Part shown: positions 5,576 through 51,948 of the stretch, one piece after another
How positions within the stretch are numbered: the first letter of the stretch is position 1
How the letters are laid out: each line of letters opens with the position of its first letter
IMG/VR virus record: IMGVR_UViG_3300027857_000001
Span: 1 to 64,000 of that record
Source: a virus
Direction: 5' to 3' (one strand)
DNA: 64,000 nucleotides
Notes under the pieces: generated by a model
What the model was told of the DNA's origin: nothing
The model's database searches: none
The model's input: only the letters and a program-made list of their open reading frames with translations
Made by a program: the position numbers and the translations under genes

Positions 5576-5932
5576 TTGGACACCGCGCTGCTCACTGCCG
5601 TGACCAACCTCGGCTTCGGCGGCATCGTCCTGATCCTCATCATGCTCGGCTGGCTCGTCCCCCGCCCGGCGCACACGCGGGCACTGGATGAGAACGCCCG
5701 GAAGGACGAGGCGATCGAGAAACTCCAGGAAGCACTCGCCCTGGAACGCCAGCGGTCCAACGACGCCACGCAGGCAGCCGCCGTCACCAACCAGCTCATC
5801 GGCGCTCTCACCACCCTCGCCACCGAGCACCGCGCAGCGGAGAAGCACGAGCACAAGCAGGCAGCCGACGCCGCCTACGCCAGGGGCGCCCCCGCGACGC
5901 CGCAGATCGCCGGCAAGGACACCGGCCAGTGA
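5576..5932 (+). CDS. Membrane protein of lysis cassette (holin-like, 1 TM plus coiled coil)
   Basis: N-terminal hydrophobic segment LGFGGIVLILIMLGWLV followed by a coiled coil; upstream of endolysin. Confidence 0.55.
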   Translation: MDTALLTAVTNLGFGGIVLILIMLGWLVPRPAHTRALDENARKDEAIEKLQEALALERQRSNDATQAAAVTNQLIGALTTLATEHRAAEKHEHKQAADAAYARGAPATPQIAGKDTGQ

Positions 5933-6141
5933 GGTGGCGCAGGATGAGGCGGCCGGTCCTGCCACACGGTGCCGGCCAGGTCGCGGCGGCTGAGAAGGAA
6001 GTCGAGCTGTCCCGCCGGCGCCTGCGCGAGACGCACGAGAAGGTCATCGTGCCGCTGCGCGCTGCGGCAGACCGCAACAACTTCGCCGAGCTGATCGCCG
6101 CCTCGCTCGCGCATGGCCGCGGGAACCAGTCAGGCGGGTGA
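5929..6141 (+). CDS. Small lysis-cassette protein
   Basis: GTGA overlap with the previous gene; C-terminal NNFAELIAASL motif seen in actinophage lysis regions. Confidence 0.5.
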   Translation: MRWRRMRRPVLPHGAGQVAAAEKEVELSRRRLRETHEKVIVPLRAAADRNNFAELIAASLAHGRGNQSGG

Positions 6142-6145
6142 GCGC

Positions 6146-6565
6146 ATGCTGAAGCGGGTCACATGGCGGAGCTGGGCCGTGCTCGCGGTCCTCGCCGGCG
6201 CCTACGCTGCCCTCGGGTTCCTGCTGGGCCGCAACGGAGTCATCGAGGAGGAGATCTACAAGTGGGGGCTGCTCGGAGCATCCGCCGCCCCGTTCGCGCT
6301 CGTCGCCGCATACACCGCTTCGGGGAACCGCTGGTGGGCGAACGACGTCGGCAGCGCGATCGTCCAGATCAAGCTGTGCGTCGCGCTCCTCGTCGTCCCG
6401 CTGACGTGGGTGTTCTGGGTGGACGGCGGCATCCTCAGGCCCGGCTGGCTGGCGTGGGCCGAGGTGTCCGCCCCGGCCCTGGTCGCGCTCGCGCTGCTGC
6501 GGCTCTGCTGGGTGTTCTGGCGCATCCACCGGGCCGGTGGCGGCAGGAAAGGACCGGAGAGTTGA
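6146..6565 (+). CDS. Multi-pass membrane protein (putative holin)
   Basis: About 4 hydrophobic segments; lysis-cassette context. Confidence 0.55.
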   Translation: MLKRVTWRSWAVLAVLAGAYAALGFLLGRNGVIEEEIYKWGLLGASAAPFALVAAYTASGNRWWANDVGSAIVQIKLCVALLVVPLTWVFWVDGGILRPGWLAWAEVSAPALVALALLRLCWVFWRIHRAGGGRKGPES

Positions 6566-7071
6566 CGGAGCCCGCGAACGGCCACGCAGCCGCGCACACT
6601 GAACGGCGTACGCTCCGGGAGACCGTCGCGTACCCGCCGCACGGCCCGCGCGAATCTGACCCGCATTACGGGATTTTCGAGCATGCGAAACACCATCTCG
6701 TGCACGTGCTCGGCGCGGGGTGCTGGATCGGCGGCGCGACGCTCGCCCAGGTGAAGGCCGGGCTGCCCGGAGGGCACCGCTGCGCAGGCGCAGCCCAGCT
6801 CGAGGCGCACCACGCTGTAGCCGAGTTCGCGGGGCTGAATGAGATCGACTGGCAGAAGGTTGCCGCGGACTTCCCGCAGGCTGGCCTCCATTCGGACGAG
6901 GAATTCAAAGCCTTCGCCAATAGCGAAGGCGGCCTGCTTATCCTCTGCGATGTCCACCATCGCCATCCGGGTAAAGGAATCCACAGCGTCACATATCCGG
7001 CATGGCTGCTTGATAAGTACGCGAAGGACGAGTGGGAATTCCTCCCGGATCAGGACCGGAGCGGGACGTGA
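6562..7071 (+). CDS. His-rich HNH-like protein
   Basis: TTG start overlapping the previous stop; LEAHH and LCDVHHR...GIH motifs resemble an HNH metal-binding core. Confidence 0.5.
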   Translation: MTEPANGHAAAHTERRTLRETVAYPPHGPRESDPHYGIFEHAKHHLVHVLGAGCWIGGATLAQVKAGLPGGHRCAGAAQLEAHHAVAEFAGLNEIDWQKVAADFPQAGLHSDEEFKAFANSEGGLLILCDVHHRHPGKGIHSVTYPAWLLDKYAKDEWEFLPDQDRSGT

Positions 7072-7412: not shown

Positions 7413-8365
7413 TCTCCGGCCTGGACATCTCCAACGTCAACGGGGCACTCGACCTGGCGTCCCTCGCACGCCAGTACCGGCTGAGCTTCGCGATCCTGAA
7501 GGCCACCGAAGGCACCGGATTCCGCGACCCGCTGTTTCCCGCCGCGTGGGAGGCACTGAAGCAACTCGGGCTCGCACGAGGCACGTACCACTTCGCCCAC
7601 CCGTCAGGCGAGCCTGACGCGGAGGCGGCCTTCTTCCTGGCGTACGTGCGCGAGAACGGCCTGCTCGACGCCGATGTTCTCGCCCTCGACCTGGAGGTAA
7701 CGGACGGTCTCCCGCCTGAGCAGGTCGCCGGGTGGGCGCGCCGGTTCTGCTCCCGCGTGAGCTCCGCGTCCGGGCGCCGGCCGCTCGTCTACACCTTCAT
7801 CAGCTTCGCCGTGGCGGGGAACTGCGCAGGGCTCGGGCGGTATCCGCTGTGGATCGCCGACCCGTCAAGCACGCCGGGATCGCCCCGGGTCCCCGGTCCG
7901 TGGACGACGTGGGCGGTGCACCAGTACGGCCAGCAGGGCATCGACCTGGACGTCGCGAACTACCCGGACGCCGCGGCGATGACCCGCGCGCTCGGCAGGC
8001 CCCGGCCTTCCCCGCCCGCACCGCCGAAGCCCGTGGAGGACGACATGGTCAGCATCTCCCCGCTCCAGCTCCCCGCGTACCAGTCCGGACCGGCCGGCGC
8101 CACGGCGGCCGTCACGGTCGACCTGTCGTCCGCGGGCACCTTCAGGGCCATCGGGTTCTCCTCGCACTGGTCGCTGGCCGGGCAGCCGCAGCCGGCCATC
8201 CGGGTGGAGGTCCACTCGTACAGCAAGGGGTTCACGCAGACCGTGCCTGAGCTGATGATCCCGCAGTCCGGCAAGGCCGTCGTTGTGTTCACCGAGCATG
8301 ACGTCGATTACCTGTCCGTCAGCAGGGCGAACGGCAGCCCTGCGCTGGTGTCAGCGGGGACGTGA
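7409..8365 (+). CDS. GH25 muramidase endolysin
   Basis: GLDISNVNG, FAILKATEG, GTYHFAHP, LALDLEV, PLVYT, LWIA and HQY motifs of GH25; GTG start overlapping the previous stop. Confidence 0.9.
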   Translation: MISGLDISNVNGALDLASLARQYRLSFAILKATEGTGFRDPLFPAAWEALKQLGLARGTYHFAHPSGEPDAEAAFFLAYVRENGLLDADVLALDLEVTDGLPPEQVAGWARRFCSRVSSASGRRPLVYTFISFAVAGNCAGLGRYPLWIADPSSTPGSPRVPGPWTTWAVHQYGQQGIDLDVANYPDAAAMTRALGRPRPSPPAPPKPVEDDMVSISPLQLPAYQSGPAGATAAVTVDLSSAGTFRAIGFSSHWSLAGQPQPAIRVEVHSYSKGFTQTVPELMIPQSGKAVVVFTEHDVDYLSVSRANGSPALVSAGT

Positions 8366-8538
8366 CGGTGAGGGACTGGGTCTCGTTCCTGATCGCCGCG
8401 TTCGGCCTGCTGCTCCTCCTCGCGGACACGGCCGTCGCGGGCGGCCAGGTCCGGATCGACAATCCGCAGTGGCTTCTCCCCGGCGGCCTCGCCTGCTGGC
8501 TCCTCGCCTGGATAATCGCGATGCTGCCGAGGAATTAG
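8362..8538 (+). CDS. Small 2-TM protein (58 aa, not in ORF track)
   Basis: Manual translation VTVRDWVSFLIAAFGLLLLLADTAVAGGQVRIDNPQWLLPGGLACWLLAWIIAMLPRN; GTGA overlap with endolysin stop. Confidence 0.55.
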   Translation: MTVRDWVSFLIAAFGLLLLLADTAVAGGQVRIDNPQWLLPGGLACWLLAWIIAMLPRN

Positions 8539-8598
8539 GCCCCCATCGTCCCCTGGACGCGCGGCATCGTCCGCCCTGACCTGACGCAACGGAGGCAC

Positions 8599-9525
8599 GT
8601 GACTATGCCTGCCCGCAGGCCGCTCGGCCGGCTCCCCGAGGACCGCTCGAAGCCGCGGCTGCTGCTCACCCCCCACCTGCGCGCCACGCCGCCCCCGCCC
8701 GCGTCAGCGGACTGGTACAGCCACGTCCCGGCATGGGGGACGCTCGGGAACACGGACTGGGGCGACTGCGTGTTCGCAGGCACCGGCCATATCGCCGAGC
8801 AGCAGACCGCAGCCGGTGAAGGTACCGAGGTGATCGTCACCGACGCCGAGATACTCGCTGCTTACACCCGGGTCACGGGCTTCGACCCGGCCGCCGGGCC
8901 GCCAGGCCAGAACCCGACCGACAACGGCGCGCTGCTCCAGGACGGCCTCGCCGACCTGCGCAGGAACGGGCTCGCCGGGCAGAAGATCGCCGCGTTCGCC
9001 CGGCTCGCGGACGGCGATGAGGACGAGCTGAGGACCGCTGTCGCCCAGCTGGGCTGCGCGGCCATCGGCGTGCGGCTCCCGCAGTCCGCCCTCGCTCAGT
9101 TCGACGCCGGCGAGCCGTGGACACTGGTGCCGGACGACGGAGGCATAGCCGGCGGCCATGCAGTGACCGCCTTCGGGTACGACCAGACGTACATCTACCT
9201 GGTCTCCTGGGGAAAGGTCGTTCCCGCTGCGTGGGACTGGCTGCGCGCCTACTGCGGCGAGGCGTGGGCGGTCGTGTCGCAGGACTGGGCGGGACGCGAC
9301 GGCAGGGACCCGGAAGGCGTAGACCTGCACCAGCTCGGGAACGAGTTCGCGATGCTCACCGGCTCGCCGAACCCGTTCCCGGCCCCGCCCGCGCCGCCGC
9401 CGCACCCTGCACCGGGACCCGCCGCGCAGCTCGCCGAGCTGGCCGCTTTCATCCGCGAGGTCGCCGCGGACACTGCCCGCGACGTCACCGACATCACCCG
9501 CTGGCTCAGCCAGCACGGCATCTAG
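8599..9525 (+). CDS. Papain-like (C1-type) cysteine peptidase domain protein
   Basis: GN..WGDCVFAG (catalytic Cys), GGHAV...GYD (His), SWG..(W) motifs. Confidence 0.65.
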   Translation: MTMPARRPLGRLPEDRSKPRLLLTPHLRATPPPPASADWYSHVPAWGTLGNTDWGDCVFAGTGHIAEQQTAAGEGTEVIVTDAEILAAYTRVTGFDPAAGPPGQNPTDNGALLQDGLADLRRNGLAGQKIAAFARLADGDEDELRTAVAQLGCAAIGVRLPQSALAQFDAGEPWTLVPDDGGIAGGHAVTAFGYDQTYIYLVSWGKVVPAAWDWLRAYCGEAWAVVSQDWAGRDGRDPEGVDLHQLGNEFAMLTGSPNPFPAPPAPPPHPAPGPAAQLAELAAFIREVAADTARDVTDITRWLSQHGI

Positions 9526-9537
9526 AGGAGAACCGCC

Positions 9538-9831
9538 TTGACAGAGACGGGCACCGGGCAGGTACCTGAGCCGTCGCACCCGGGATTCCTGGCACACCTC
9601 CGCGACCACCTGCTGCCGGAAGTCGCGGCCCTCCGCGCCGACGCGGAGCACGCCAGGACGGCAATCCCGGCCGCGCTCGCCGGCATCGGCACCCTCGCCG
9701 GCATCATCGGGTCGCTCGCCAGGATGGCGGACCCTTCAGCCGGGCCGGAGGTCACCGCGATGATCGCCGAGGCGGATAAGGCGGCTGCTGAGGCGGCCGC
9801 GGCAGCGGAGAAGCTCCTCGGGAAGATGTAG
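9538..9831 (+). CDS. Hypothetical protein
   Basis: ORF with GAGGAG RBS; last gene before the terminator. Confidence 0.5.
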   Translation: MTETGTGQVPEPSHPGFLAHLRDHLLPEVAALRADAEHARTAIPAALAGIGTLAGIIGSLARMADPSAGPEVTAMIAEADKAAAEAAAAAEKLLGKM

Positions 9832-9856
9832 GCCCTCAGCCCCGGCTAAGAACGCA

Positions 9857-9894
9857 CCGCCCCGCTCCTGGTCACGCGGCCCGGAGCGGGGCGG
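9857..9894. terminator. Hairpin between convergent operons
   Basis: CCGCCCCGCTCC / GGAGCGGGGCGG 12-bp stem. Confidence 0.7.
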
Positions 9895-9927
9895 CTTCCG
9901 CATGCCCGGTGGTGGGCGGCGGCCATC

Positions 9928-10734
9928 TCAGGCGGCATCGTTCCCGCCTCGGGAGACCGCGTACCTCACTGGCTCGCGGTGCGCCATGAATGACCCGGCC
10001 TGCGAGAACGCAAACGAAGCCTCCGTCGAGGCCCAGCCGTCAAGCAGCCCGATGGTCTGCGACCTGGACGCGTCCGGGACGACGGTGACGTACCCGGCCT
10101 GCGTGACACGGCTGAGCTGCCAGTCGTATCCGGAGTCGAAGCCGCGCGTCCCCGAGTCGCATTCCCAGTCCCACACCGGGCGGATGGCCCGCTCCCACCG
10201 GCTGCGCCACGTGCCCCAGCACCACGCGTTGAAGTACGGCAGGAGCCTGACCGCCGACTGGTCCGCGTCCGTATCCTGTGCCGGCTCGTGCGGGTCCCAT
10301 CCCTGGCCGCCCCGGCTGTGCGCGCACACCGCGAGAACCTGTTCGTCCTGCGCGAACAGGCCGGCCGCCCAGCAGAAGTACTCCAGGACGTCGGAAGACA
10401 CCACCACGTCTTCCTCGCCGAAGATGACGAACTCCGCCGCCGGGTCAGCGAGCACATGGTCCGCGGCCTCCGCGATGGCCCTTCCCATGCCCCTTGACGC
10501 CGCCGCCGCGGCGGAGTCCGGCTTGATCCGCACCCGGGCGCCCAGCCCGGAGGATGCGCGGAAATCGCTGATGACCTCAACCTGCTCAGCGAACTGGGCC
10601 TCGTCGTAGCCGAGCGCGATGGTGAACGAGTGCACGCCGCCGAGGCCGCGCGCCCCGCGCCAGGACTCCAGGGTCTGGCGGAGATAGTAGGGGCGTTTCA
10701 GCGCCGTCACGATGACCGCAGGCTCACAGCTCAT
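9928..10734 (-). CDS. Glycosyltransferase, GT-A fold
   Basis: IVTALKRPYYLRQTLESW N-terminus, FGEEDVVVSSD (DxD-like), YFNAWCWGTWRSRW. Confidence 0.65.
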   Translation of the reverse strand: MSCEPAVIVTALKRPYYLRQTLESWRGARGLGGVHSFTIALGYDEAQFAEQVEVISDFRASSGLGARVRIKPDSAAAAASRGMGRAIAEAADHVLADPAAEFVIFGEEDVVVSSDVLEYFCWAAGLFAQDEQVLAVCAHSRGGQGWDPHEPAQDTDADQSAVRLLPYFNAWCWGTWRSRWERAIRPVWDWECDSGTRGFDSGYDWQLSRVTQAGYVTVVPDASRSQTIGLLDGWASTEASFAFSQAGSFMAHREPVRYAVSRGGNDAA

Positions 10735-21844: not shown

Positions 21845-22993
21845 GTGAGCAGCCGGGTGGTGAAGCGGGCGTACAAGTACCGCTTCTACCCGACCCCGGA
21901 GCAGGCGGAGCTGCTGAACCGGACGTTCGGGTCGGTGCGGTACGTGTACAACCGGGCGCTCGCGGAACGGTCCCGGGCGTGGACACAGGACCAGAAGCGG
22001 GTCACGTTCGCGGAAACCTGCCGGATGCTCACCCAGTGGAAAGCGGACCCGGAGACATCCTGGCTGTACGAGGTATCCAACGTCGCGCTCCAGCAGGGGC
22101 TCCAGCATCTCCAGCAGGCATACCTGAACTTCTGGGGCAAACGCTCCGGGTACCCGACGTTCAAATCGAAACGGAAGTCGCGGGCATCAGCGACGTTCAC
22201 AACCTCGGGGTTCCGCTACCGGGACGGGCAGATCACGCTGGCGAAGATGGATGTCCCGCTGGATATCCGCTGGTCCCGCCCGCCGCCCGAATGCGCGGAG
22301 CCGTCCACGGTGACGGTCAGCCGGGACGCGGCCGGACGGTGGCATGTCTCGATCCTGGTCGAGGAGACGATCGAGCCGCTTCCCCCGGCGCCAGCATCGG
22401 CGGTTGGGGTCGATGCCGGGATAACGTCGCTGGTGACCCTGTCGACCGGGGAGAAGATCACCAACCCGAAGTGCGAGAAACGGGACCGCGCCCGGCTGGC
22501 GAAGGCGCAGCGGAACCTGGCCCGCAAGCAGAAAGGCTCCCGCAACCGGGCCAGAGCGCGCGTCAAGGTCGCCCGCGTGTATGCCCGGATCACCGACCGC
22601 AGGACCGATTTCCTGCACAAGTTGTCCACGAGGATCATCCGCGAGAACCAAACGGTGATCATCGAAGACCTGACCGTCCGCAACATGCTCAGGAACCATT
22701 CCCTGGCCCGCGCGATCTCCGATGCGTCCTGGTCGGAGTTCCGCAGGCAGCTGGAATACAAGGCGGACTGGTACGGCCGCACCGTCATCGCGGTCGACAG
22801 GTTCTACCCGTCGAGCAGGACATGCTCTGCGTGCGGCCGCCTGGCCGCGTCGATGCCGCTGAACGTCCGGGAATGGGCGTGCCCCGCGTGCGGCACAGTC
22901 CACGACCGGGATATCAACGCCGCGAGGAACATACGAGCTGCCGGGCTGGCAGTGCTTGCCTGCGGAGATGGCGTAAGACCTGCCCGCACGTAG
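21845..22993 (+). CDS. tnpB: TnpB RNA-guided nuclease (IS605/IS1341 type)
   Basis: AYKYRFYPT; RuvC D (GVDAG), E (IEDL), D (DRDINAA); CxxC..CxxC Zn finger. Confidence 0.95.
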   Translation: MSSRVVKRAYKYRFYPTPEQAELLNRTFGSVRYVYNRALAERSRAWTQDQKRVTFAETCRMLTQWKADPETSWLYEVSNVALQQGLQHLQQAYLNFWGKRSGYPTFKSKRKSRASATFTTSGFRYRDGQITLAKMDVPLDIRWSRPPPECAEPSTVTVSRDAAGRWHVSILVEETIEPLPPAPASAVGVDAGITSLVTLSTGEKITNPKCEKRDRARLAKAQRNLARKQKGSRNRARARVKVARVYARITDRRTDFLHKLSTRIIRENQTVIIEDLTVRNMLRNHSLARAISDASWSEFRRQLEYKADWYGRTVIAVDRFYPSSRTCSACGRLAASMPLNVREWACPACGTVHDRDINAARNIRAAGLAVLACGDGVRPART

Positions 22994-28969: not shown

Positions 28970-29446
28970 GGCCAGGTTCTGTTCTTCTCGGCGTCAGGCG
29001 CCGGGTCCCTCCCGGAGACCATCGCCCTGTTCGCAGTATCGGGCGGGACGCTCGTGCACAGCGAGTCAGCGACGTGGGCCGGCGCGGCCGGGAGCGGCTG
29101 GGTGCGGGCGTCGTTCAGCAGCCCGCCGTCCCTCACCGTGAGCACGAACTATGTCGCCGCTGTATTCGATTCTGGTGGCTTCAACTGGTACAGCGGCACG
29201 CACAACTACTGGGACACAGGCGCCGGCTCGGGCGGCATCACTAACGGGCCGCTGTCCGCGCCGAACAACGCCGGTGCAGCGCACGGCCAGGACGCATTCG
29301 ACAACTCCGGGCCGCTGGCGTTCCCCACCACCAGCTTCCAGGCCACCAACTACTGGATGGACCCCGAGGTCACCGTCACGGCCGCGACGGCAGGGAGGCC
29401 TCCCCTGATCGCCGGCCAGGCCGTACAGCGCGCAGCCGCCTGGTAA
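28970..29446 (+). pseudogene. 5'-truncated DUF4082-like gene
   Basis: SGWVRASFSSP..LTVSTNYVAAV...NGPLSAP...AFPTTSFQATNYWMDPEV; no credible start. Confidence 0.55.
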
Positions 29447-29473
29447 CACCCTCTCAGACCGGAAGGACCCGGC

Positions 29474-29660
29474 ATGCTCTACACCGCCTGGACCAACGCC
29501 GACGTGGCCCTCACTGCGGCGACCGCCAAGACCGCACTGTACATCATCCCCCCGGCCGGGTTCGGCTACCAGCTGTGCGTGGTGGAAATCGGCGTCGAGT
29601 TCGAGGGTGCGGTCCAGGGTACCGACTGCCTGACCGAGCTCGTCGAGTCCACCGCCGCTT
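29474..29660 (+). pseudogene. 3'-truncated phage structural-type gene
   Basis: MLYTAWTNADVALTAATAKTAL...IGVEFEG; cut where the cas1 shard begins. Confidence 0.35.
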
Positions 29661-29865
29661 CGAGGTCCGCCTGAAAGGCGCGGAACTGTCGTCGGTCCGG
29701 GTCCTGGACGTGTCGCAGATCTGCATACGCGGCAACGCCATGGTGACCGCGCAGGCGCTGCGGAAGGCGCTGGCCGCGCAGATCCCGGTGTGCTGGTTCT
29801 CCTACGGCGGGTGGCTCAGCGGGATCACCACCTGCCGGGGAAGAACATCGAGCTGCGCCGCCGCC
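29657..29865 (+). pseudogene. cas1: cas1 fragment (Cas4-Cas1 fusion type), frameshifted
   Basis: RFEVRLKGAELSSVRVLDVSQICIRGNAMVTAQALRKALAAQIPVCWFSYGGWLSGITT, then in another frame LPGKNIELRRR. Confidence 0.75.
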
Positions 29866-30257
29866 GCAGCTGCGGCTTCCCTCGCCAGGGCAAGGGCTGC
29901 TTTCGCCGCCCGCACCGCATCCTCCGCGGCGATGATGGCCGCCGGGTTCCCTTGCCGCTTCGCGTACCCGAGGCGGGACTTCGCCCTCGAGAGGGCTTGC
30001 CCGGCGGACTCGGCGGCCCCCTCCGCCTCGCGGAGGGCCGCGAGGATCGGGGTAACCTGCGGGTCAGCTTCCCAGGCGGCGTCCTTCTCCTCCTGGTACT
30101 TCCGCTCGGCCGCGACGTCCTCGTTGGCCAGCTCGTGCACGCGGCGGACCTCTGCCATGACCGGGTCCTGTACCGGGCCCCGGACCCGGTACCGGTACGC
30201 GATCGGCACGGTCCCAGGCGCGGCGCCCTCTCCGGTTCCGTCCATCGTGATCACCAT
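29802..30257 (-). pseudogene. N-terminal ~130 aa of a Cas12m (V-U1/V-M)-like effector, truncated against the cas1 shard
   Basis: AYRYRVRGPVQDPVMAEVRRVHELANEDVAAERKYQEEKDAAWEADPQV plus a long helical hairpin; aligns with my recollection of the MmuCas12m N-terminus; no RuvC. Confidence 0.55.
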
Positions 30258-30413
30258 CCGGGGTTGTCTGTTAACGGTCAGAAAGGATACTCCCGGAGTC
30301 CGGGATAATGTGCCGGTATGACGGGCTCTGCAGTACTTCGCCCGGCATGCGCGCCGCCCAGGGACCCGAACCCTGGTGTATGCCATCACGGCCGCCTTCC
30401 GTACTTCGCCGCG

Positions 30414-31256
30414 TCAGCGCTGGACGGTCCCCGTCAGCGCGTCCCACAGCTGGCTGCTGCTCACGTCCATCGTCGCCGTCGTGTTGTCCGGGAAGATGCC
30501 GCGGAAGAAGCCTGTCAGGTTCGTCACCTGGAGGACCGGGCGCGGCTGGTCGGTCGGGTAGCCATCCGGGTAGGTGAGGACGAACGGGTGAGAGAAGTTC
30601 GTGTTCGCCCCGTTGATCAGGGGAACGCCGTCCTCAGTGCCCGTCGACTCGCCGAAACTGTTGCTGTCCCCGAACTGCTCCGGGCCGCCGCTGCCATCGA
30701 AGGCGTCGACGATCCACACTGTCCTGCCGGAGACGCCGCACGGCTGCAGCGTCACCTTCTCGCCCGCAACAGGGGTGGCGGCGAGTCCGGCGCACTCGCC
30801 GGTCGCGGCACCGAACGGGGTGTACTCGATCTCGTACGCATCCAGGTTCGCGTTCCCGTCGCTTTCGTCGGTCCCGAACACGCATGTCGGGAACGCGACA
30901 GTGCCCGCGATGCAGCCGTAGTGCAGAGAGGTCATCGGGCTGACAAGGCCGGCCTGGGCGAAGTCCGATACCGTGCCCTGATTCTCGAAGACGAAGTCCT
31001 CGGCCGGGTCATGGTTCGACTCGCGGAACAGGATGATCGACGTACCAGTCGCGACACCCTGCTTCGCGGAGTCCATCAGGAAGCCCGGGTGGCCGGTAAC
31101 GCCGTCGCCGAACTGGTCGCTGAAAACGTCCACGCAGGACGGCCCGCAGGACGGGGTTGCGGCGTAGGCGGTGGCGGCGAGGGTCCCGCCGCCGAGGATG
31201 CCTGCCGTGAGCGCGGTCAGCCCGAAGAAGTACTTGCTCCTGTGCATGAGCTTCAC
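30414..31256 (-). CDS. Secreted Cys-containing protein (ricin-B/lectin-like)
   Basis: Signal peptide ending ATAYA; paired Cys; TLQPCG...TVW motif. Confidence 0.55.
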   Translation of the reverse strand: MKLMHRSKYFFGLTALTAGILGGGTLAATAYAATPSCGPSCVDVFSDQFGDGVTGHPGFLMDSAKQGVATGTSIILFRESNHDPAEDFVFENQGTVSDFAQAGLVSPMTSLHYGCIAGTVAFPTCVFGTDESDGNANLDAYEIEYTPFGAATGECAGLAATPVAGEKVTLQPCGVSGRTVWIVDAFDGSGGPEQFGDSNSFGESTGTEDGVPLINGANTNFSHPFVLTYPDGYPTDQPRPVLQVTNLTGFFRGIFPDNTTATMDVSSSQLWDALTGTVQR

Positions 31257-31395
31257 AGCTCGTTTCCTTCCGTTTGTGCAGCGCAGCCCCTGCGGCGGCG
31301 CTCCGGTAACCGTCCCCGGGTTGCGGCGGGGAGGGAGTCCTGAGGTCCGGCTGCCCGGATGGTCCGGGCCGGTGCCGCAAGCTCACCCCGGGCAG

Positions 31396-31695
31396 TCACG
31401 CCGACCCCTTCGTGAGCTTGCGGCGCGGAGTCCTGGCCTGGAGTGTCCCGTCGCCGGGATCGTCGGCCTGGCGGCGCTGAGGCGCCCGTGACGGCAGAGA
31501 GGCACCCGGCGCCGGCGCCCTGGCGCCGGCGCGGGCGATCTCGGCGAGCTGCTGAGGGGTGAACAGCGTCGTCCGCCCGAGCTTCGTTGACGGGATCGCT
31601 CCGGTCCGCGCGTGGACTTTCAGCCAGTTGGCGGACTTGTGCACGATGGGTGACGCCTCCTCGGCGCTGAACAGAACGGGTGCCCCGGAGGTCAT
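31396..31695 (-). CDS. HTH_17 excisionase-like protein
   Basis: FSAEEAS..VHKSANWLK.HARTGAIPSTKLGRTTLFT. Confidence 0.7.
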   Translation of the reverse strand: MTSGAPVLFSAEEASPIVHKSANWLKVHARTGAIPSTKLGRTTLFTPQQLAEIARAGARAPAPGASLPSRAPQRRQADDPGDGTLQARTPRRKLTKGSA

Positions 31696-31874
31696 GACGC
31701 CTTCTTTCCTGCGCGCTCGCACGCTTTCAGCCACGCCTCGACCGCCGCCGGCCTGTAGCGCACGCCGTGCCCGACCTTGATCCAGTCCGGCCCGGTGCCT
31801 CTCGATCGCCATGCGGCCAGCGCGCTGACCGTGATCTCCCCGCCCAGGTACGCGGCCAGCTCGGCTGACGACAT
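31692..31874 (-). CDS. AlpA/Xis-like HTH protein
   Basis: SSAELAAYLGG..TVSALAAWRSRGTGPDWIKVGHGVRY. Confidence 0.75.
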   Translation of the reverse strand: MSSAELAAYLGGEITVSALAAWRSRGTGPDWIKVGHGVRYRPAAVEAWLKACERAGKKAS

Positions 31875-32021
31875 GAGCGGCTCCCTCTGCGGGGCCACGT
31901 CGCGGTCCTGCACCGGCACCTCCAGTCATCCGTTCCGGGTTTCCCCGTCCATGCTGAAATCATCTTGTCACGACTATGGCGGGATTGGCAACGAAACCAT
32001 GATCATGTAATGTCTTGTCAC

Positions 32022-32522
32022 ATGTCGCCAGGTGATGAGGAGCCGCAGCGGGAGCATCCGCGGGAGGTCGGCGATAACGTGCGCCGGTACCGGGAGTTCC
32101 GGGGCATGAGCCAGGAAGCCCTCGCCCGCGAGATGGTGAAGCGGGGTTTCCCCTGGTTCCAGTCCACGGTCTACAAGGTGGAGCACTCGGGGCGGCGCAT
32201 GGAGATGTACGAGGGCCGCGCCGTATGCGACATCCTCGGCATCTCCGTCGACAGGCTGTTCTGGGCCGGCGATGAAGCTGCCGAGATGGCGCTGGTCGAA
32301 GGTGCCATCTCATCGCTGAGGCAGGCGCACGACGAGACCGCCCGGGCGGTCGCGCGGCTTGACGCGGCCGCGCGCGCCGCCGCGCGCACCCTGAGGGACC
32401 GCGGCGGCAGCAGGTACGAGCGGGTCCGGGAGACCTGCGGCGACCTGGAGGCCGAGCTGGGATCGTCCACGCTCGACCTGGCCGTCGCGAGAGCGGGGGA
32501 GATCCTGGATGGTGACAGCTGA
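32022..32522 (+). CDS. XRE-family repressor
   Basis: VRRYREFRGMSQEALAREM...QSTVYKVEHSGRR; divergent from the xis genes, coupled to int. Confidence 0.8.
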   Translation: MSPGDEEPQREHPREVGDNVRRYREFRGMSQEALAREMVKRGFPWFQSTVYKVEHSGRRMEMYEGRAVCDILGISVDRLFWAGDEAAEMALVEGAISSLRQAHDETARAVARLDAAARAAARTLRDRGGSRYERVRETCGDLEAELGSSTLDLAVARAGEILDGDS

Positions 32523-34168
32523 TGGCGTACGCGGAGCGGGTGAGATCCCCGAAGGGCGACTACTGGCGCGGCCGGTACCAGGACCCTGACGGCCGGTACC
32601 TCACCGTGCGGGACGCAGGCGGCCGGGTCATAAGGTACCCGGCGAAGCTGGACGCCGAGCATGGTGCCGACGACGCCGAGTCAGCGGTCCGCGGCGGCGA
32701 CTGGATCGACCCGCGTGCGGGGCTGGTCACGTTCGGGGAGTGGGCCAGCGCGTGGTACAGGAAGCAGGACCTGGCCGAGTCCACGATGGAGAACTACCGG
32801 CAGCACCTCGTGTACCACCTGCTGCCGTATTTCCAGCACAAAGCCCTCGCCGACATCAGCGAGGAGATGATCGGCAAATGGGCCCGGTCAGAGAGGGCCA
32901 GGGGCTACGAGCCGGACAGCATCAGGACCTGGCGGGCCACCCTGCACACCTGCCTGGAGGACGCGACAGGCACGCACATCAGCGTGAACCCGGCCACCCG
33001 GAAAAGGGGCAGGGGGAAGAGATCGGGCCGCGCCGCCGGGGACAGCGCCGAGGAGAAGATGATCACCGACCCGCTCGGCGTCCTGCTCATCGCCGAGCGG
33101 ATGGCGATACTCTCCGGCCGCGACGACGAGCTCGTCATGGTCGTCACGGGATTCTGGGATGCGCTGCGGCTCGGCGAGACTGTCGGCCTGGAGAGCAGGT
33201 ACGTGCGTCCCCGGACACTGCGGGTGGACTGGCAGCTTCACGAGATCGGCGGGAAAGACCCCGGGACCGGCGCCCCTGGCGGCCGGCTGGTGCGCTGCCC
33301 GCCGAAAGACGGATCGAGGGGGACGCTGGACCAGCCGCAGTTCCTCGCCCGCCTGCTGGCCGAGCACATCATGCGGACCCGGCCGGAGCCATGCCCCTGT
33401 CACGGGAAGACCTACGTGTTCCGCGGCATGGGCATCCCGCGAGGCCCGCGCGGCTCCATGTCGATGCGTGAACTGGCCGCCCTCGCCGGGGTGTCGGAGA
33501 CCGTGGTCGCGACGGTGCTCGGCAAGCCGGGCCGCGTCAGCGAGCAGACACGCCGTCACGTCGAGGCTGTCATCGCCGCGTGCGGCTACCGGCGGGAGGC
33601 GGGGACGGACCGTCCCGCGTGGCACTGGCGCAGGTCCGCGTTCGAGGAACTGTTCACGGCTGCGGCATCGGGATGGCTCCCGGCCCGCGCGCCCCTGCCG
33701 CGCCGCCCCGTCCCGGTGGCCGGGGACTGGCCGGGCATGCGGGTGCGGGGCCGCAACGCGCAGGGCCGGGCGCAGTTCTGCTGGCTTCCTGTCGCCGAGG
33801 GGCTCACTCCTCACGGGCTGCGCCACTCGGCGAAGACGTGGATGGAGGAGGAGGGGATACCGGAGGTGCTGAGCGAGCAGCGGCTGCGCCACGAGATCGC
33901 CGGGATCTCCGGCCGGTACCGTCACGTGACGCAGAGGATGCGCGACGAGCTCGTGGCTGCGATGACGGCGGCGTGGGAGGGCGCGCTGGACGCGCGGCTG
34001 GCGATGTCGGAGCGCTCGCCGGCAGCGGTGCTCGACACGCTGCTGCGGGAGCGGCTCGAGGCGCGCAGGCCCAGGGCCGTCCCCAGGAATTCCCCAGAAA
34101 CAAGTGAAGCGGTGCTCCCGTTTCCTCGGGGCACCGCCTCTGACCTGGGTCGGGGTGGCCGGATTTGA
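32522..34168 (+). CDS. int: Tyrosine integrase with an inserted LacI-type HTH
   Basis: DALRLGE (R), PKDGS (K), HGLRHS (HxxR), LRHE...RYRH (H, Y); insert MRELAALAGVSETVVATVLGKPGRVSEQTRRHV. Confidence 0.88.
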   Translation: MAYAERVRSPKGDYWRGRYQDPDGRYLTVRDAGGRVIRYPAKLDAEHGADDAESAVRGGDWIDPRAGLVTFGEWASAWYRKQDLAESTMENYRQHLVYHLLPYFQHKALADISEEMIGKWARSERARGYEPDSIRTWRATLHTCLEDATGTHISVNPATRKRGRGKRSGRAAGDSAEEKMITDPLGVLLIAERMAILSGRDDELVMVVTGFWDALRLGETVGLESRYVRPRTLRVDWQLHEIGGKDPGTGAPGGRLVRCPPKDGSRGTLDQPQFLARLLAEHIMRTRPEPCPCHGKTYVFRGMGIPRGPRGSMSMRELAALAGVSETVVATVLGKPGRVSEQTRRHVEAVIAACGYRREAGTDRPAWHWRRSAFEELFTAAASGWLPARAPLPRRPVPVAGDWPGMRVRGRNAQGRAQFCWLPVAEGLTPHGLRHSAKTWMEEEGIPEVLSEQRLRHEIAGISGRYRHVTQRMRDELVAAMTAAWEGALDARLAMSERSPAAVLDTLLRERLEARRPRAVPRNSPETSEAVLPFPRGTASDLGRGGRI

Positions 34169-34364
34169 ACCGGCGGCCTCTTCGTCCCGAAGAAAGTAGC
34201 CGTAAGTTCACGGGTTACGTTAAACCAGGATGTTCTCACTGTTCCGACCAGGACGTTTTCGGTTCGCCAGGTCAGAGGCCCAACGGCAAAGTCGCGTTCA
34301 GCGGCGTTCAGCGATATCCGCTCACGTTCACGGCTAGTCTCGTCCCCAGGAATTCCCCAGAAAC
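34078..34364. repeat. 24-bp direct repeat flanking the att core (integrase arm sites)
   Basis: CGTCCCCAGGAATTCCCCAGAAAC at 34078-34101 and 34341-34364. Confidence 0.75.
34146..34191 (-). other. attP core = 3' half of tRNA-Pro(CGG), starting at the anticodon loop
   Basis: Reverse complement TTCGGGACGAAGAGGCCGCCGGTTCAAATCCGGCCACCCCGACCCA; no tRNA 5' half upstream. Confidence 0.85.
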
Positions 34365-34484
34365 GCCGTCCGCCGGGTTGCCGAGTCGGCTTGCCGCCGT
34401 CAGGCAGAACCCCATCCACGAATGCCCGGAGACTGACTCGCACCGTCTCGTGGTCGCAGCGATCGGCGCGATCTCAAGATGGAT

Positions 34485-35618
34485 GTCTCAGCAGATACGG
34501 CGCTGAGCGGACGTTGCGGCCGCAGAGGCCCCAGGGTCGAGGCGCTATTGAGGTGGATGTCTCAGCAGGTACGCACCCGAGCATGCGTTACCACCGCAGC
34601 CCGGCGGAGACTCGTGTTGCGTCGGCATCACGTCTCAGCGTTTACGCAGCTGAGCATGCGTTGCGACTTGACCGGGGTAGCGGTCAGGCCGACCAGGTAG
34701 GCGTCGTCTCAGCGTTTACGCAGCTGAGCATGCGTTACGACAACGCGCACGAACACAAGCGCACCTGGGACAGCCGGGTCTCAGCGTTTACGCAGCTGAG
34801 CATGCGTTGCGACCAGGACGAGGGCTCCACCCGCGGCCAGTCTCAGCTCAGTCTCAGCAGGTACGCAGCTGAGCATGCGTTGCGACGCCGCATGCACTCA
34901 TGGCACGGGTAGGTGGTGGTGGTCTCAGCAGGTACGCAGCTGAGCATGCGTTGCGACTCTTACAGGGTATGCTTCACCGTTCCTGGGATAACGGAGGTCT
35001 CAGCAGGTACGCAGCTGAGCATGCGTTGCGACCGCGCACACGCCACTGGCTTCGCTGCCTCGGCGTGGGTCTCAGCAGGTACGCAGCTGAGCATGCGTTA
35101 CGACGTCCAGGGTGCCTTCAGCCGCACGCTCCACCCACAGCGTCTCAGCAGGTACGCAGCTGAGCATGCGTTGCGACGCCGCATGCACTCATGGCACGGG
35201 TAGGTGGTGGTGGTCTCAGCAGGTACGCAGCTGAGCATGCGTTGCGACCGCGGAGTGGACATCCCGCCCGACGCATGGGATCTGAGGTCTCAGCAGGTAC
35301 GCAGCTGAGCATGCGTTGCGACTAGCGCTAAATTAGTGCTAACTTACCGTTGCGTGTGGTCTCAGCAGGTACGCAGCTGAGCATGCGTTGCGACCATGAG
35401 CGCGCCAGGATTGCCGAAGCGGTGCTTGAGTTCGTCTCAGCAGGTACGCAGCTGAGCATGCGTTGCGACCTTAACGTTGCCCTAGATCGAGTGCAACCAT
35501 TAATCCCGGTCTCAGCAGGTACGCAGCTGAGCATGCGTTACGACCGTAGGACAAACGTGAGGAGGCGACGACCATGGACATGGTCTCAGCAGGTACGCAG
35601 CTGAGCATGCGTTACGAC
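34485..35618 (-). CRISPR. CRISPR array: 16 repeats of 36 bp, 15 spacers of 35-39 bp
   Basis: Repeat (- strand) GTCGCAACGCATGCTCAGCTGCGTACCTGCTGAGAC; starts on + at 34485, 34559, 34632, 34706, 34778, 34851, 34922, 34997, 35069, 35142, 35213, 35287, 35359, 35434, 35509, 35583; first two degenerate (trailer). Confidence 0.97.
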
Positions 35619-35800
35619 CGCTCCCGGTTTTCACCGGGTATGGCCTGCGGGAATGCGGTGGCTTGCGAGCGGTCCTGAATGCTGGCCTCTAGCGGCTTAA
35701 CCGCCGCTCAATCCAGCCAGGGTTCGTGCCGTGTGACCTGCACGCGAGCGGCCCCCGGGGGTTCCGGGCACCACCGGGCCGCTCGCACGGACAGCCCGGG
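35619..35800 (-). promoter_or_regulatory. CRISPR leader
   Basis: Non-coding, adjacent to the non-degenerate end; inverted repeat GCGAGCGGCCC...GGGCCGCTCGC typical of actinobacterial leaders. Confidence 0.6.
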
Positions 35801-36012
35801 GGACGTTCAGTACAGCGGACAGCAGCAGAGCTGTCCCGGGCAGGCTCCCGCATCTGCGCCGGCCAGGGATGCCTGGCTGCGCGCGGTGAACCTGCCGCCC
35901 CGTCAGTGGCGGACGGGCACGCCATGGGTTATGGACTTGTCAAGAAACAGCCTGCACCGGAGTCTACCGGCGCAGGCTTAGCCTGTCGTCAGGCGTGGCC
36001 GCCGTGAGCCGG

Positions 36013-50611: not shown

Positions 50612-50758
50612 TTAAACGTTCCGCGGGTTCTCGGCATAGCGCTTGATGACCTCCAAGGTTGCGCCGCCCACCGTGGCGACGAAATAGCTGCTTGTTCACA
50701 GAGCCGGCAGGCGCCGGCGCAGCGACGGGAACTCCCGCCGCAACTGCGCCGTGCTGTA
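50612..50758 (-). pseudogene. tnpA: tnpA (Y1 transposase) C-terminal remnant
   Basis: YSTAQLRREFPSLRRRLPAL*TSSYFVATVGGATLEVIKRYAENPRNV*: conserved Trp replaced by TGA (50696-50698); N-terminus absent. Confidence 0.85.
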
Positions 50759-50760
50759 GC

Positions 50761-51948
50761 GTGGATGGTGTGTTCGAGACGGTGCGCTACACCTACCGCC
50801 TGCGCCCTGGTACGCAGGCGGAACGCGCGCTGCTTGACGAGTGGGGCCGGTGCCGCTGGCTGTGGAACGAGGCCGTCAACCAGCGCAGGACCGGGCGCAA
50901 GCCGACGTTCTGCAAGCTGTCCAAGTTGCTGACCGCGGCACGAGCGGCAAACGAGTGGCTCCGCGAAGGTTCGCAGGTCGCGCAGCAGCAGACGCTGCGG
51001 ACATACATGCTGGCCCTGGACCACTCGTTCAAGGTCAAGGGACGGCGCACGCCGGTGATCAAGCGGCGCAAGGACACCCTGCCGTCGCTTGAGTACACCG
51101 TGCGCGGGTTCTCTGTCCGCGATGGCCGCCTGTGCCTGCCCAAGGGCGTATCGGTACCCGTGGTGTGGTCCCGCGACCTGCCGTCTGCCCCGTCGAGCGT
51201 CCGCGTCTACCAGGATTCGCTGGGCCACTGGTACGCGTCGTTCGTCGTCACCCGCGAGGCTGAGCCTGCGCCGGAAGCCAGCGGGAAGATCGGCATCGAC
51301 TGGGGTATCAAGGTCACGGCCACGGCCACGGACCCGGCTTACGATCTGCCGTACGGTGGGCACAGGAAACGCTGCGCGGCTGAACTGGCGAGGGCGCAGC
51401 GGAAGATGAGCAGGCGCCGCAGGGAACGCGGCCAGCCCCAGTCGAACGGGTACCGCTGTGCCAGGCGGGAAGCAGCGGAGCTCCACAAGAAAGCCGCACG
51501 GCAGAACACCCACGCGGCCCGCGTGTGGGCACGGCGGATAGTGGACCATCACCAGGTAATAGCCGTTGAGGACTTCAGGCCGCTGTTCCTGGCTAAGTCC
51601 ACGATGGCGCGTAAGTCCGCTGATGCCGCGGTAGGTACCGCGAAGCGGGCGCTGATCGAGTATGGCAAGCGGGCGGCCCGGAAGGTGGTGCTGGTTCCGC
51701 CCGCCTACACGACGATGACGTGCGCTGAGTGCGGTACGAGAGCCAAGGAACGCCTCACGCTCGCCGAACGGGTCTTCGTGTGTACGGCCTGCGGATGTAT
51801 CGCGGGCCGTGACGCGAACGCCGCGAGAGTGATTCTCGCCCAGGGTGAACGCATCCTGGCTGGTGCTGACGACGTAAGACAACTCCCTTGCCTCCCTTCA
51901 GGGGTAGCGGGCGGAATGCGGTCTGAGCCAGGAATCCCCCGGCACTAG
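50761..51948 (+). CDS. tnpB: TnpB
   Basis: VRYTYRLRP; GIDWG (D), AVEDF (E), RDANAA (D); CAEC..CTAC Zn finger. Confidence 0.93.
   Translation: MDGVFETVRYTYRLRPGTQAERALLDEWGRCRWLWNEAVNQRRTGRKPTFCKLSKLLTAARAANEWLREGSQVAQQQTLRTYMLALDHSFKVKGRRTPVIKRRKDTLPSLEYTVRGFSVRDGRLCLPKGVSVPVVWSRDLPSAPSSVRVYQDSLGHWYASFVVTREAEPAPEASGKIGIDWGIKVTATATDPAYDLPYGGHRKRCAAELARAQRKMSRRRRERGQPQSNGYRCARREAAELHKKAARQNTHAARVWARRIVDHHQVIAVEDFRPLFLAKSTMARKSADAAVGTAKRALIEYGKRAARKVVLVPPAYTTMTCAECGTRAKERLTLAERVFVCTACGCIAGRDANAARVILAQGERILAGADDVRQLPCLPSGVAGGMRSEPGIPRH

Follow-up and report, generated by a model that had tools for sequence, protein, structure and literature searches.

The viral record analysed here is 135,301 bp long, with 69.6% GC and a 127-nt terminal repeat, and its first 64 kb constitute the window, i.e., the whole stretch of DNA to which the coordinates below refer unless positions of the record are given. 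The record is a temperate actinophage of 135 kb, and its host is actinomycete-type and high-GC. In the window, a truncated cas12m gene and an internal piece of a cas4-cas1 gene meet head-on, and the xis/repressor/integrase module to which attP belongs lies between the cas12m stump and a CRISPR array. The features of this region are as follows.

28981-29658, plus strand: direct duplicate of 678 nt, 100% identical by blastn to record 124328-125005
29659-29865, plus strand: cas1 shard, residues ~240-311 of a type I-G-style Cas4/Cas1 fusion, truncated at both ends and without a start codon
29805-30257, minus strand: open reading frame (ORF) of 151 aa (stop 29805-29802), or of 147 aa from the second ATG at 30245
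29851-29871, no strand assigned: head-on junction, with a (CGC)4 run at 29853-29867 flanked by the 7-nt inverted repeat AGCTGCG/CGCAGCT
29866-30257, minus strand: 5' part of cas12m, codons 1 to ~131, recognised by profile and structure-sequence matches and free of stops
30258-30413, minus strand: intergenic stretch upstream of the cas12m fragment, locally AT-rich
31692-31919, minus strand: excisionase (xis)
31965-32522: XRE-type repressor
32522-34168: tyrosine integrase
34485-35618, minus strand: CRISPR array of 16 repeats of 36 nt, with decayed repeats at the 34485 end
35619-35984, minus strand: array leader, ~93% identical to the leader of the relative L112 and containing a TTGACA motif

The original prediction that the minus-strand piece is the 5' ~390 bp of a type V-like (Cas12m-like) gene holds. 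The 151-aa ORF matches no family in Pfam or PHROGs, and its matches to coiled-coil surface proteins in NCBIfam are all far below the cut-offs. Word-indexed protein searches, in which Ala-rich words crowd out the true matches, found no longer relatives of the fragment, and an exhaustive HMMER search was needed to reach them. The latter yielded 17 relatives, most of which are 500-820 aa long and whose first ~130 residues align to query residues ~11-135. P0002, the best of them and the nearest full-length relative, is ~47% identical to the fragment over the N-terminus and matches the Cas12m2 structures with an E-value of 4e-42. From end to end, with the N-terminal domain included, the profile of the family aligns with 8pm4 (GoCas12m) and 8hhl/8hio (MmCas12m2) at E-values of 1e-109 to 1e-113, and it matches positions 30230-29841 of the window at 1.2e-41 over profile positions 5-134 without any stop. 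Similarity to the characterised Cas12m proteins is also significant for the fragment alone, which matches 8pm4_A (GoCas12m) residues 21-125 at 3.3e-4, its residues 26-132 corresponding to GoCas12m 21-125. In the rest of the 135-kb record, the only match to the family profile is the C-terminus of an ordinary TnpB at 22.5 kb. The phage carries three TnpB (IS605/IS607-type OrfB) genes, at 21845-22993 (plus strand), 50659-51948 (plus strand) and record 104954-106420 (minus strand).

The fragment covers the first, N-terminal strand of WED together with the first helix of REC and the helical hairpin known as the "Roof" of REC, and ends there. In GoCas12m, the REC Roof helical insertion occupies residues 50-124 and the crRNA is anchored by WED and RuvC (PMC11013384). 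The full-length relatives of the fragment possess RuvC and zinc-finger/TNB domains; the window copy stops at about codon 131, short of the RuvC-like domain with its H/D/N-D/E-D triad and of the C-terminal zinc-finger/TNB, and RuvC or TNB sequence of this Cas12m family is absent from the whole 135-kb record. The window therefore holds a gene fragment and not a Cas12m protein. An AF2 model of the fragment consists of three long helices only (31-64, 69-102 and 105-138; pLDDT 85), for which a Foldseek search of the PDB ranks F-BAR and other helical proteins first (E-value ~0.1) and Cas12m2 8hhl_A 19th (E-value 0.37). Since three long helices carry no fold signal, the Foldseek result is not discriminating and was not counted against the sequence evidence. 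The alternative that non-Cas coiled-coil proteins match the fragment better is not borne out at the sequence level, where the signal lies.

The 151-aa product predicted for this strand is indeed open, and the last 19 codons of the frame before the stop are antisense cas1. As the record, with its 69.6% GC, contains 290 ORFs of at least 150 aa in six frames (65 of the 290 with coding-like GC3), the open 151-codon frame is no evidence of a gene; two other long ORFs overlap the same site. The upstream stretch had been described as AT-rich and promoter-like: it is locally AT-rich and holds a terminator-like hairpin at 30305-30291, but the promoter scan found no sigma-70-type consensus upstream of the fragment.

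The plus-strand piece proved to be what had been predicted, a frameshifted Cas4-Cas1-type cas1 shard of ~210 bp. The plus-strand frame through 29641-29850 matches Pfam Cas_Cas1 (E-value 2.1e-8), and the shard matches NCBIfam cas4g_cas1g (NF049935; E-value 1.8e-13) over positions 230-294 of the 546-position profile. When longer proteins were sought, three Cas4-Cas1 fusions of 550-552 aa were retrieved, and the shard shares 93% amino acid identity with residues 240-299 of the 550-aa fusions P0019 and P0020. At the nucleotide level, positions 29654-29865 are 90.7% identical to L015:1096-1311, and positions 29654-29789 are 97.8% identical to L112:3905-4040, where contig L112 ends. Compared with L015 and L013, the window is 4 nt shorter near 29833-29835, and the tblastn match accordingly spans two frames (residues 240-299, then 301-311). 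P0019 and P0021 pass the NCBIfam cas4g_cas1g cut-off of 560 bits, with 738 and 748 bits, respectively, and the shard is closely homologous to bona fide Cas4g/Cas1g members (93% amino acid identity with P0019; 97.8% nucleotide identity with L112). The shard itself reaches 49.8 bits vs. the 560 bits of the cut-off and does not match over both the Cas4 and Cas1 domains, being a 69-codon frameshifted internal piece that lacks the Cas4 domain and the C-terminal half of Cas1. The whole 135-kb record contains no further Cas4-Cas1 or Cas2 sequence. In the Logan assembly of the only public run that contains the stretch (DNA, soil), a 986-nt contig of low depth (4.6) runs into the shard and stops after its first 57 nt, which contain 2 mismatches; the upstream part of this contig is unlike the window, and an intact L112-like cas4-cas1 in the community would look so.

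The two pieces meet within the (CGC)4 run, where the cas1 homology stops at ~29865-29867 and the Cas12m-derived codons stop at about Ala131 (29865-29867), and the CGC/GCG microhomology originally proposed for this fusion is thus correct. The run is enclosed by a 21-nt palindrome (29851-29871), which the terminator scan flagged as a hairpin. On its other side, the shard adjoins the 678-nt duplicate, which combines the 3' 466 nt from a DUF4082 gene with the initial 61 codons of a gene for 168 aa. The window ORFs 29054-29446 and 29474-29674 are truncated pseudo-copies of these two genes. The source of the duplicate is about 95 kb away in the structural region of the phage, where both genes are intact (124206-124793 with the DUF4082 domain, and 124821-125327). 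The left junction between 28980 and 28981 shows GTTCT microhomology, and the duplicate/cas1 junction shows the near-match GCCG at 29654-29657. Read along the minus strand, the order is truncated cas12m, inverted 207-nt cas1 piece and 678-nt duplicate, so that the site is a patchwork scar of three pieces with a short GC-rich microhomology at each junction. Recombination between the two 678-nt copies would split the circle into ~95 and ~39 kb.

The fragment is associated with a V-M-type array of 16 repeats on the same strand, and the distance from the remnants, first given as about 4 kb, is 4.2 kb (30257 to 34485). Three older repeats of this array (34632-34813) represent the loop variant GTAAACGC, which is identical to the L112 repeat, as is the window repeat at 34741-34706; compared with the array that follows P0002 (L007), the closest full-length homolog, the repeat of the window array shows differences at 6-8 of its 36 positions. 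The leader aligns with that of L112 over 35980-35619, and the homology stops at ~35984. The 11 leader-proximal repeats (34851-35618) carry GTACCTGC, so the repeat type changed within one array, which may be hybrid or recombined. The array also contains an exact 107-nt duplication (34851-34957 and 35142-35248), and its spacers 6 and 10 are identical. Beyond chance 15-19-mers, no spacer targets were found in the record or in the collected related loci.

The donor had been predicted to be a Cas12m-like system with its own Cas4-Cas1 module. Systems of this type exist, and were found in L112, L013/L014 and L015. The metagenome contig L112 (JGI contig Ga0070730_10030963; 4,040 nt) carries a Cas12m C-terminus that is 57% identical to P0002, followed by the leader, the array and cas4-cas1, all on the same strand, with the cas12m N-terminus off the contig. 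L013/L014 encode a 596-aa member of the cas12m family, an array of ~1.3 kb, a cas4-cas1 that is 78% identical to the shard and a cas2. The cas locus of L013 lies beside genes for an endolysin, a tape-measure protein and major and minor tail proteins, which places it in a phage or prophage. For L015, the evidence consists of repeats of the same type, cas4-cas1 (93%) and cas2, after which follow genes similar to window 9365-9905. The order in these intact relatives (L112, L013 and L015) is cas12m, leader, array, cas4-cas1 and cas2, all codirectional, with cas2 seen where the contig reaches that far. The cas2 homolog of L013 (11673-11954, plus strand), which shares 75% identity with Cas2 of L015, overlaps the final ~80 codons of the minus-strand endolysin ORF; those codons have no lysin homology, and the lysin ORF call is probably over-extended. 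In L112, an N-terminal shard of TnpB (~1505-1575) lies directly upstream of the leader and is 85% identical over 62 nt to window 50775-50834.

The next cas4-cas1 relatives, which are 50-63% identical, occur without Cas12m, and one of this identity class, L039, is a classical type I-G locus with Cas7g, Csb2, Cas3g and a Cas3-extension protein; the Cas4-Cas1 module was therefore recruited from type I-G. P0002 (L007) and P0004 (L009), the closest full-length homologs of the cas12m fragment, are found in an integrase/lysis context with an array directly downstream and no cas1. Likewise, none of the 19 genomic family members, mostly from Mycobacterium and Gordonia and 27-35% identical, has such a cas1 or cas2 within 8 kb. 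Two relatives are themselves broken: the 147-kb metagenome contig L119 carries a degraded cas12m (5930-6820), in which an internal deletion fuses the Roof to the RuvC-I region before the gene is truncated, with no array within 6 kb, and L012 carries a truncated 506-aa cas12m (249-1546) that runs into a V-M-type array. The other short homologs of the fragment are contig ends or differently broken genes. As the genes of L119 and L012 are broken differently, the decay of cas12m is recurrent and there is no conserved N-terminal-only family. L012 also contains a type I-E-style cas1 and a cas2 (Cas2CT1978) ~7 kb upstream (8209-10342), as well as a large stretch without called genes at 3.1-6.4 kb.

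Scans of IMG/VR for the cas12m fragment and the alignment of its family, for Cas4-Cas1 and the 280-aa gene upstream, and for a 24-mer of the leader and a 20-mer of the repeat retrieved no related viral contig. The GenBank phage collection contains no DNA match for 26-38 kb and none for the 66-aa ORF, and a single weak match (24.7%) to the Cas12m family.

Type V-M effectors silence transcription and leave the DNA that they bind uncut (PMC11013384; PMC12669027), and MmCas12m and GoCas12m do so with a crRNA-only guide, i.e., without a tracrRNA (PMC11013384). V-M systems are enriched on plasmids, are also found in some prophages and are carried by mobile elements (PMC11656645), and they have been described with arrays but no other cas genes (PMC10691335). 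The premise of the original prediction that described V-M loci mostly lack adaptation genes is borne out (PMC10691335; PMC11013384). In the accessible parts of the literature naming both Cas12m and Cas4, no V-M locus with Cas4-Cas1 is described. Like the characterised V-M effectors (MmCas12m, 8hhl/8hio; GoCas12m, 8pm4), with which it aligns over the full length (E-value ~1e-110), the family of the fragment has the H-type RuvC-I position of GoCas12m and MmCas12m (VAVH..GW motif), 36-nt repeats ending in a 6-bp stem plus AC, and, in intact relatives, an array directly downstream of the effector. It differs in that identity between its phage clade and the genes of mycobacteria and Gordonia is only 27-35% and that many of its members, at 650-820 aa, are longer; moreover, cas4-cas1 and cas2 accompany some relatives, and the window copy is a 131-codon stump. 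Compared with the type I-G adaptation module, which consists of a Cas4g/Cas1g fusion and Cas2, the full-length relatives of the shard pass the cas4g_cas1g cut-off and have relatives at 50-63% identity in classical I-G loci such as L039; however, the fusions of L112, L013 and L015 lie beside cas12m and/or a V-M-type array without type I effector genes, and the window keeps residues ~240-311 only, in frameshifted form. Virus-borne orphan or mini-arrays use a Cas effector in trans (PMC11656645), and the phage described here similarly has a leader and a 16-repeat array without an effector or adaptation gene. Unlike those, the array is long, with more than one or two spacers, and is the residue of a complete phage-borne system rather than a copy of a host array. 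The Cas12m locus of myxophage MV-1, presented as the first phage Cas12m, lacks cas1, cas2 and cas4 (bioRxiv 10.64898/2026.09.14.751636). Both MV-1 and the present phage genome combine Cas12m with an array, which in MV-1 is adjacent; the MV-1 locus is intact and without adaptation genes, whereas here the host is of actinomycete type with high GC, the locus is destroyed and its relatives have an adaptation module.

The remnants are real, and most probably the leftovers of a phage-borne type V-M (Cas12m) locus that had its own Cas4-Cas1. Given that L112 shares the leader (~93%), an identical repeat variant and a cas4-cas1 that is 97.8% identical at the nucleotide level, we propose that a single L112-like locus gave rise to both the remnants and the array, and that the cas12m piece would also have belonged to it. 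Such a parent locus, of the kind found in L112, L013 and L015, would have comprised cas12m, the leader, an array of 36-nt repeats, a type I-G-derived Cas4/Cas1 fusion and cas2 on one strand. Three parts of it would have survived: ~131 codons of cas12m with the upstream region, an inverted and frameshifted 207-nt piece of cas4-cas1, and the leader with the array. The original prediction of a donor system that was captured and then deleted is, as a simple history, not sustained, because the cas1 piece has been turned round from its natural orientation, the left flank duplicates part of the phage's structural region, and the leader and array lie beyond the integrase module, upstream of the cas12m stump, with homology ending sharply at ~35984 and 34485. 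To reach the arrangement in the window (array, integrase module, cas12m 5' end and inverted cas1) from the L112 order takes more than any single deletion or inversion, and at least five breakpoints are involved. The pattern of the junctions is consistent with illegitimate repair, which may have proceeded via end-joining that took up filler DNA or via template switching during replication or repair. Since the 678-nt duplicate shows 100% identity to its source, the last rearrangement appears to have been recent, which would also account for the stump still being free of stops.

The pieces may also have separate origins, an explanation that we consider unlikely. According to it, the cas12m 5' end would be an old gene of the phage's own that decayed in situ, and cas1, perhaps with the leader and array, would have come later from another L112-like element by recombination or by aberrant excision next to attP. 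The shard, leader and repeat are indeed tied to L112 at 93-98%, and the best match of the cas12m piece is only 47%. Furthermore, the array block directly adjoins attP and the integrase, and does so on the flank from which aberrant excision would capture host DNA; its homology to L112 ends sharply on both sides, and the same sample seems to contain an L112-like cas4-cas1. The missing close match of the cas12m piece is, however, uninformative, as the N-terminal REC of Cas12 evolves fast and the N-terminus of L112 is off its contig, and one locus is the simplest explanation for finding three pieces of a single system within 6.3 kb. Whether the origin was single or separate cuts across the possible readings of function, be they inert debris, a functional stump, an antisense RNA or an artefact.

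With regard to function, the site is most probably a non-functional rearrangement scar, i.e., inert debris, and of the fates originally proposed for the retained N-terminal piece, the inert one is our preferred reading. The 151-aa frame would then be a by-product that encodes one WED strand, three long REC helices and 19 nonsense residues. The other proposed fates, a crRNA sponge or a dominant-negative protein, are unlikely because the piece stops at the end of the Roof and does not include the surfaces through which WED and RuvC hold the crRNA in GoCas12m; the zinc-finger parts, which together with WED and RuvC hold the crRNA and form the R-loop, are likewise missing. Cas12m works as a monomer.

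It is improbable, then, that a Cas12m N-terminal protein of 147-151 aa is made and acts on the full-length Cas12m of the host or of a co-resident element, be it as a decoy, as a dominant-negative, or because its Roof helices bind DNA non-specifically. Consistent with such a role, the native start and upstream region are kept, the 131 codons contain neither frameshift nor stop, the three-helix prediction is confident (pLDDT 85), a hairpin stands at the end of the Cas12m-derived part, and the nearby intact leader and array would give a Cas12m supplied in trans something to load. However, the absence of the crRNA-anchoring WED and RuvC makes a sponge implausible, a monomeric Cas12m would offer no dimer interface to poison, and the short relatives, being contig ends or broken genes, form no conserved N-terminal-only family. 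An open frame is moreover expected by chance in a GC-rich genome, and the scan found no consensus promoter.

Broader still, and very improbable in our judgement, is an active scar whose retained promoter would drive an RNA made up of the Roof-only stump and ~207 nt of antisense cas4-cas1, directed against Cas12m silencing or spacer acquisition by related V-M phages, with the phage's own array using their effector in trans. We give hardly any credence to its antisense component taken by itself, in which a transcript from the cas12m promoter would enter the inverted cas1 and yield ~207 nt that are 91-98% complementary to the cas4-cas1 mRNAs of related V-M systems, thereby damping spacer acquisition by competitors or the host. 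The geometry fits, as the cas1 shard is antisense and directly downstream of the cas12m 5' end; the identity of the shard to the cas4-cas1 of L112 and L015 is very high, and the low-depth contig of the same soil run that ends in the first 57 nt of the shard resembles an intact relative. The idea is nevertheless purely geometric, the junction hairpin might stop transcription before the cas1 part, the adjoining 678-nt filler marks the site as a random patchwork, and the arrangement does not recur in other phages.

That the head-on junction is an assembly chimera, formed at GC-rich repeats or at the 678-nt repeat of a metagenomic contig, can be dismissed as a slim chance: although the record is metagenome-derived, is found in only one public DNA run, possibly its source, and in no listed RNA run, and has an exact 678-nt repeat bordering the site that short reads cannot span, the contigs of a second assembler bridge both the cas1/cas12m and the duplicate/cas1 junctions. 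In the Logan contigs of that run, which served as the assembly check, a contig of 1331 nt covers 29681-31000 at an even depth of 26.3 across the former junction, and one of 82 nt covers 29629-29710 across the latter. To the left of 29658, over the duplicate, the depth is doubled (49.6 vs. 26.3), as expected from two copies in one genome. The assembled pairing keeps both source genes at 124.2-125.3 kb intact, and the alternative pairing of the repeat would remove neither cas junction. The read graph branches at 29658; a sibling genome without the shard was considered as the cause and rejected, as the diverging sequence is that of record 125006 onward after the exact repeat.

Inert debris being the preferred reading, the remnant itself is ordinary gene decay. 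Tracing it nevertheless led to temperate actinophage-type contigs with V-M systems that recruited a I-G-style Cas4/Cas1-Cas2 module, and V-M relatives with adaptation genes are new in comparison with the array-only V-M of previous surveys (PMC10691335). The window provides a base-resolved example of how a V-M locus is dismantled, leaving an effector-less array beside attP. If the intact loci are active, V-M silencing systems of phages can acquire spacers autonomously, which would make these loci candidates for studying the coupling of adaptation to an effector that binds DNA but does not cut it, and would help to explain the long V-M arrays on mobile elements.
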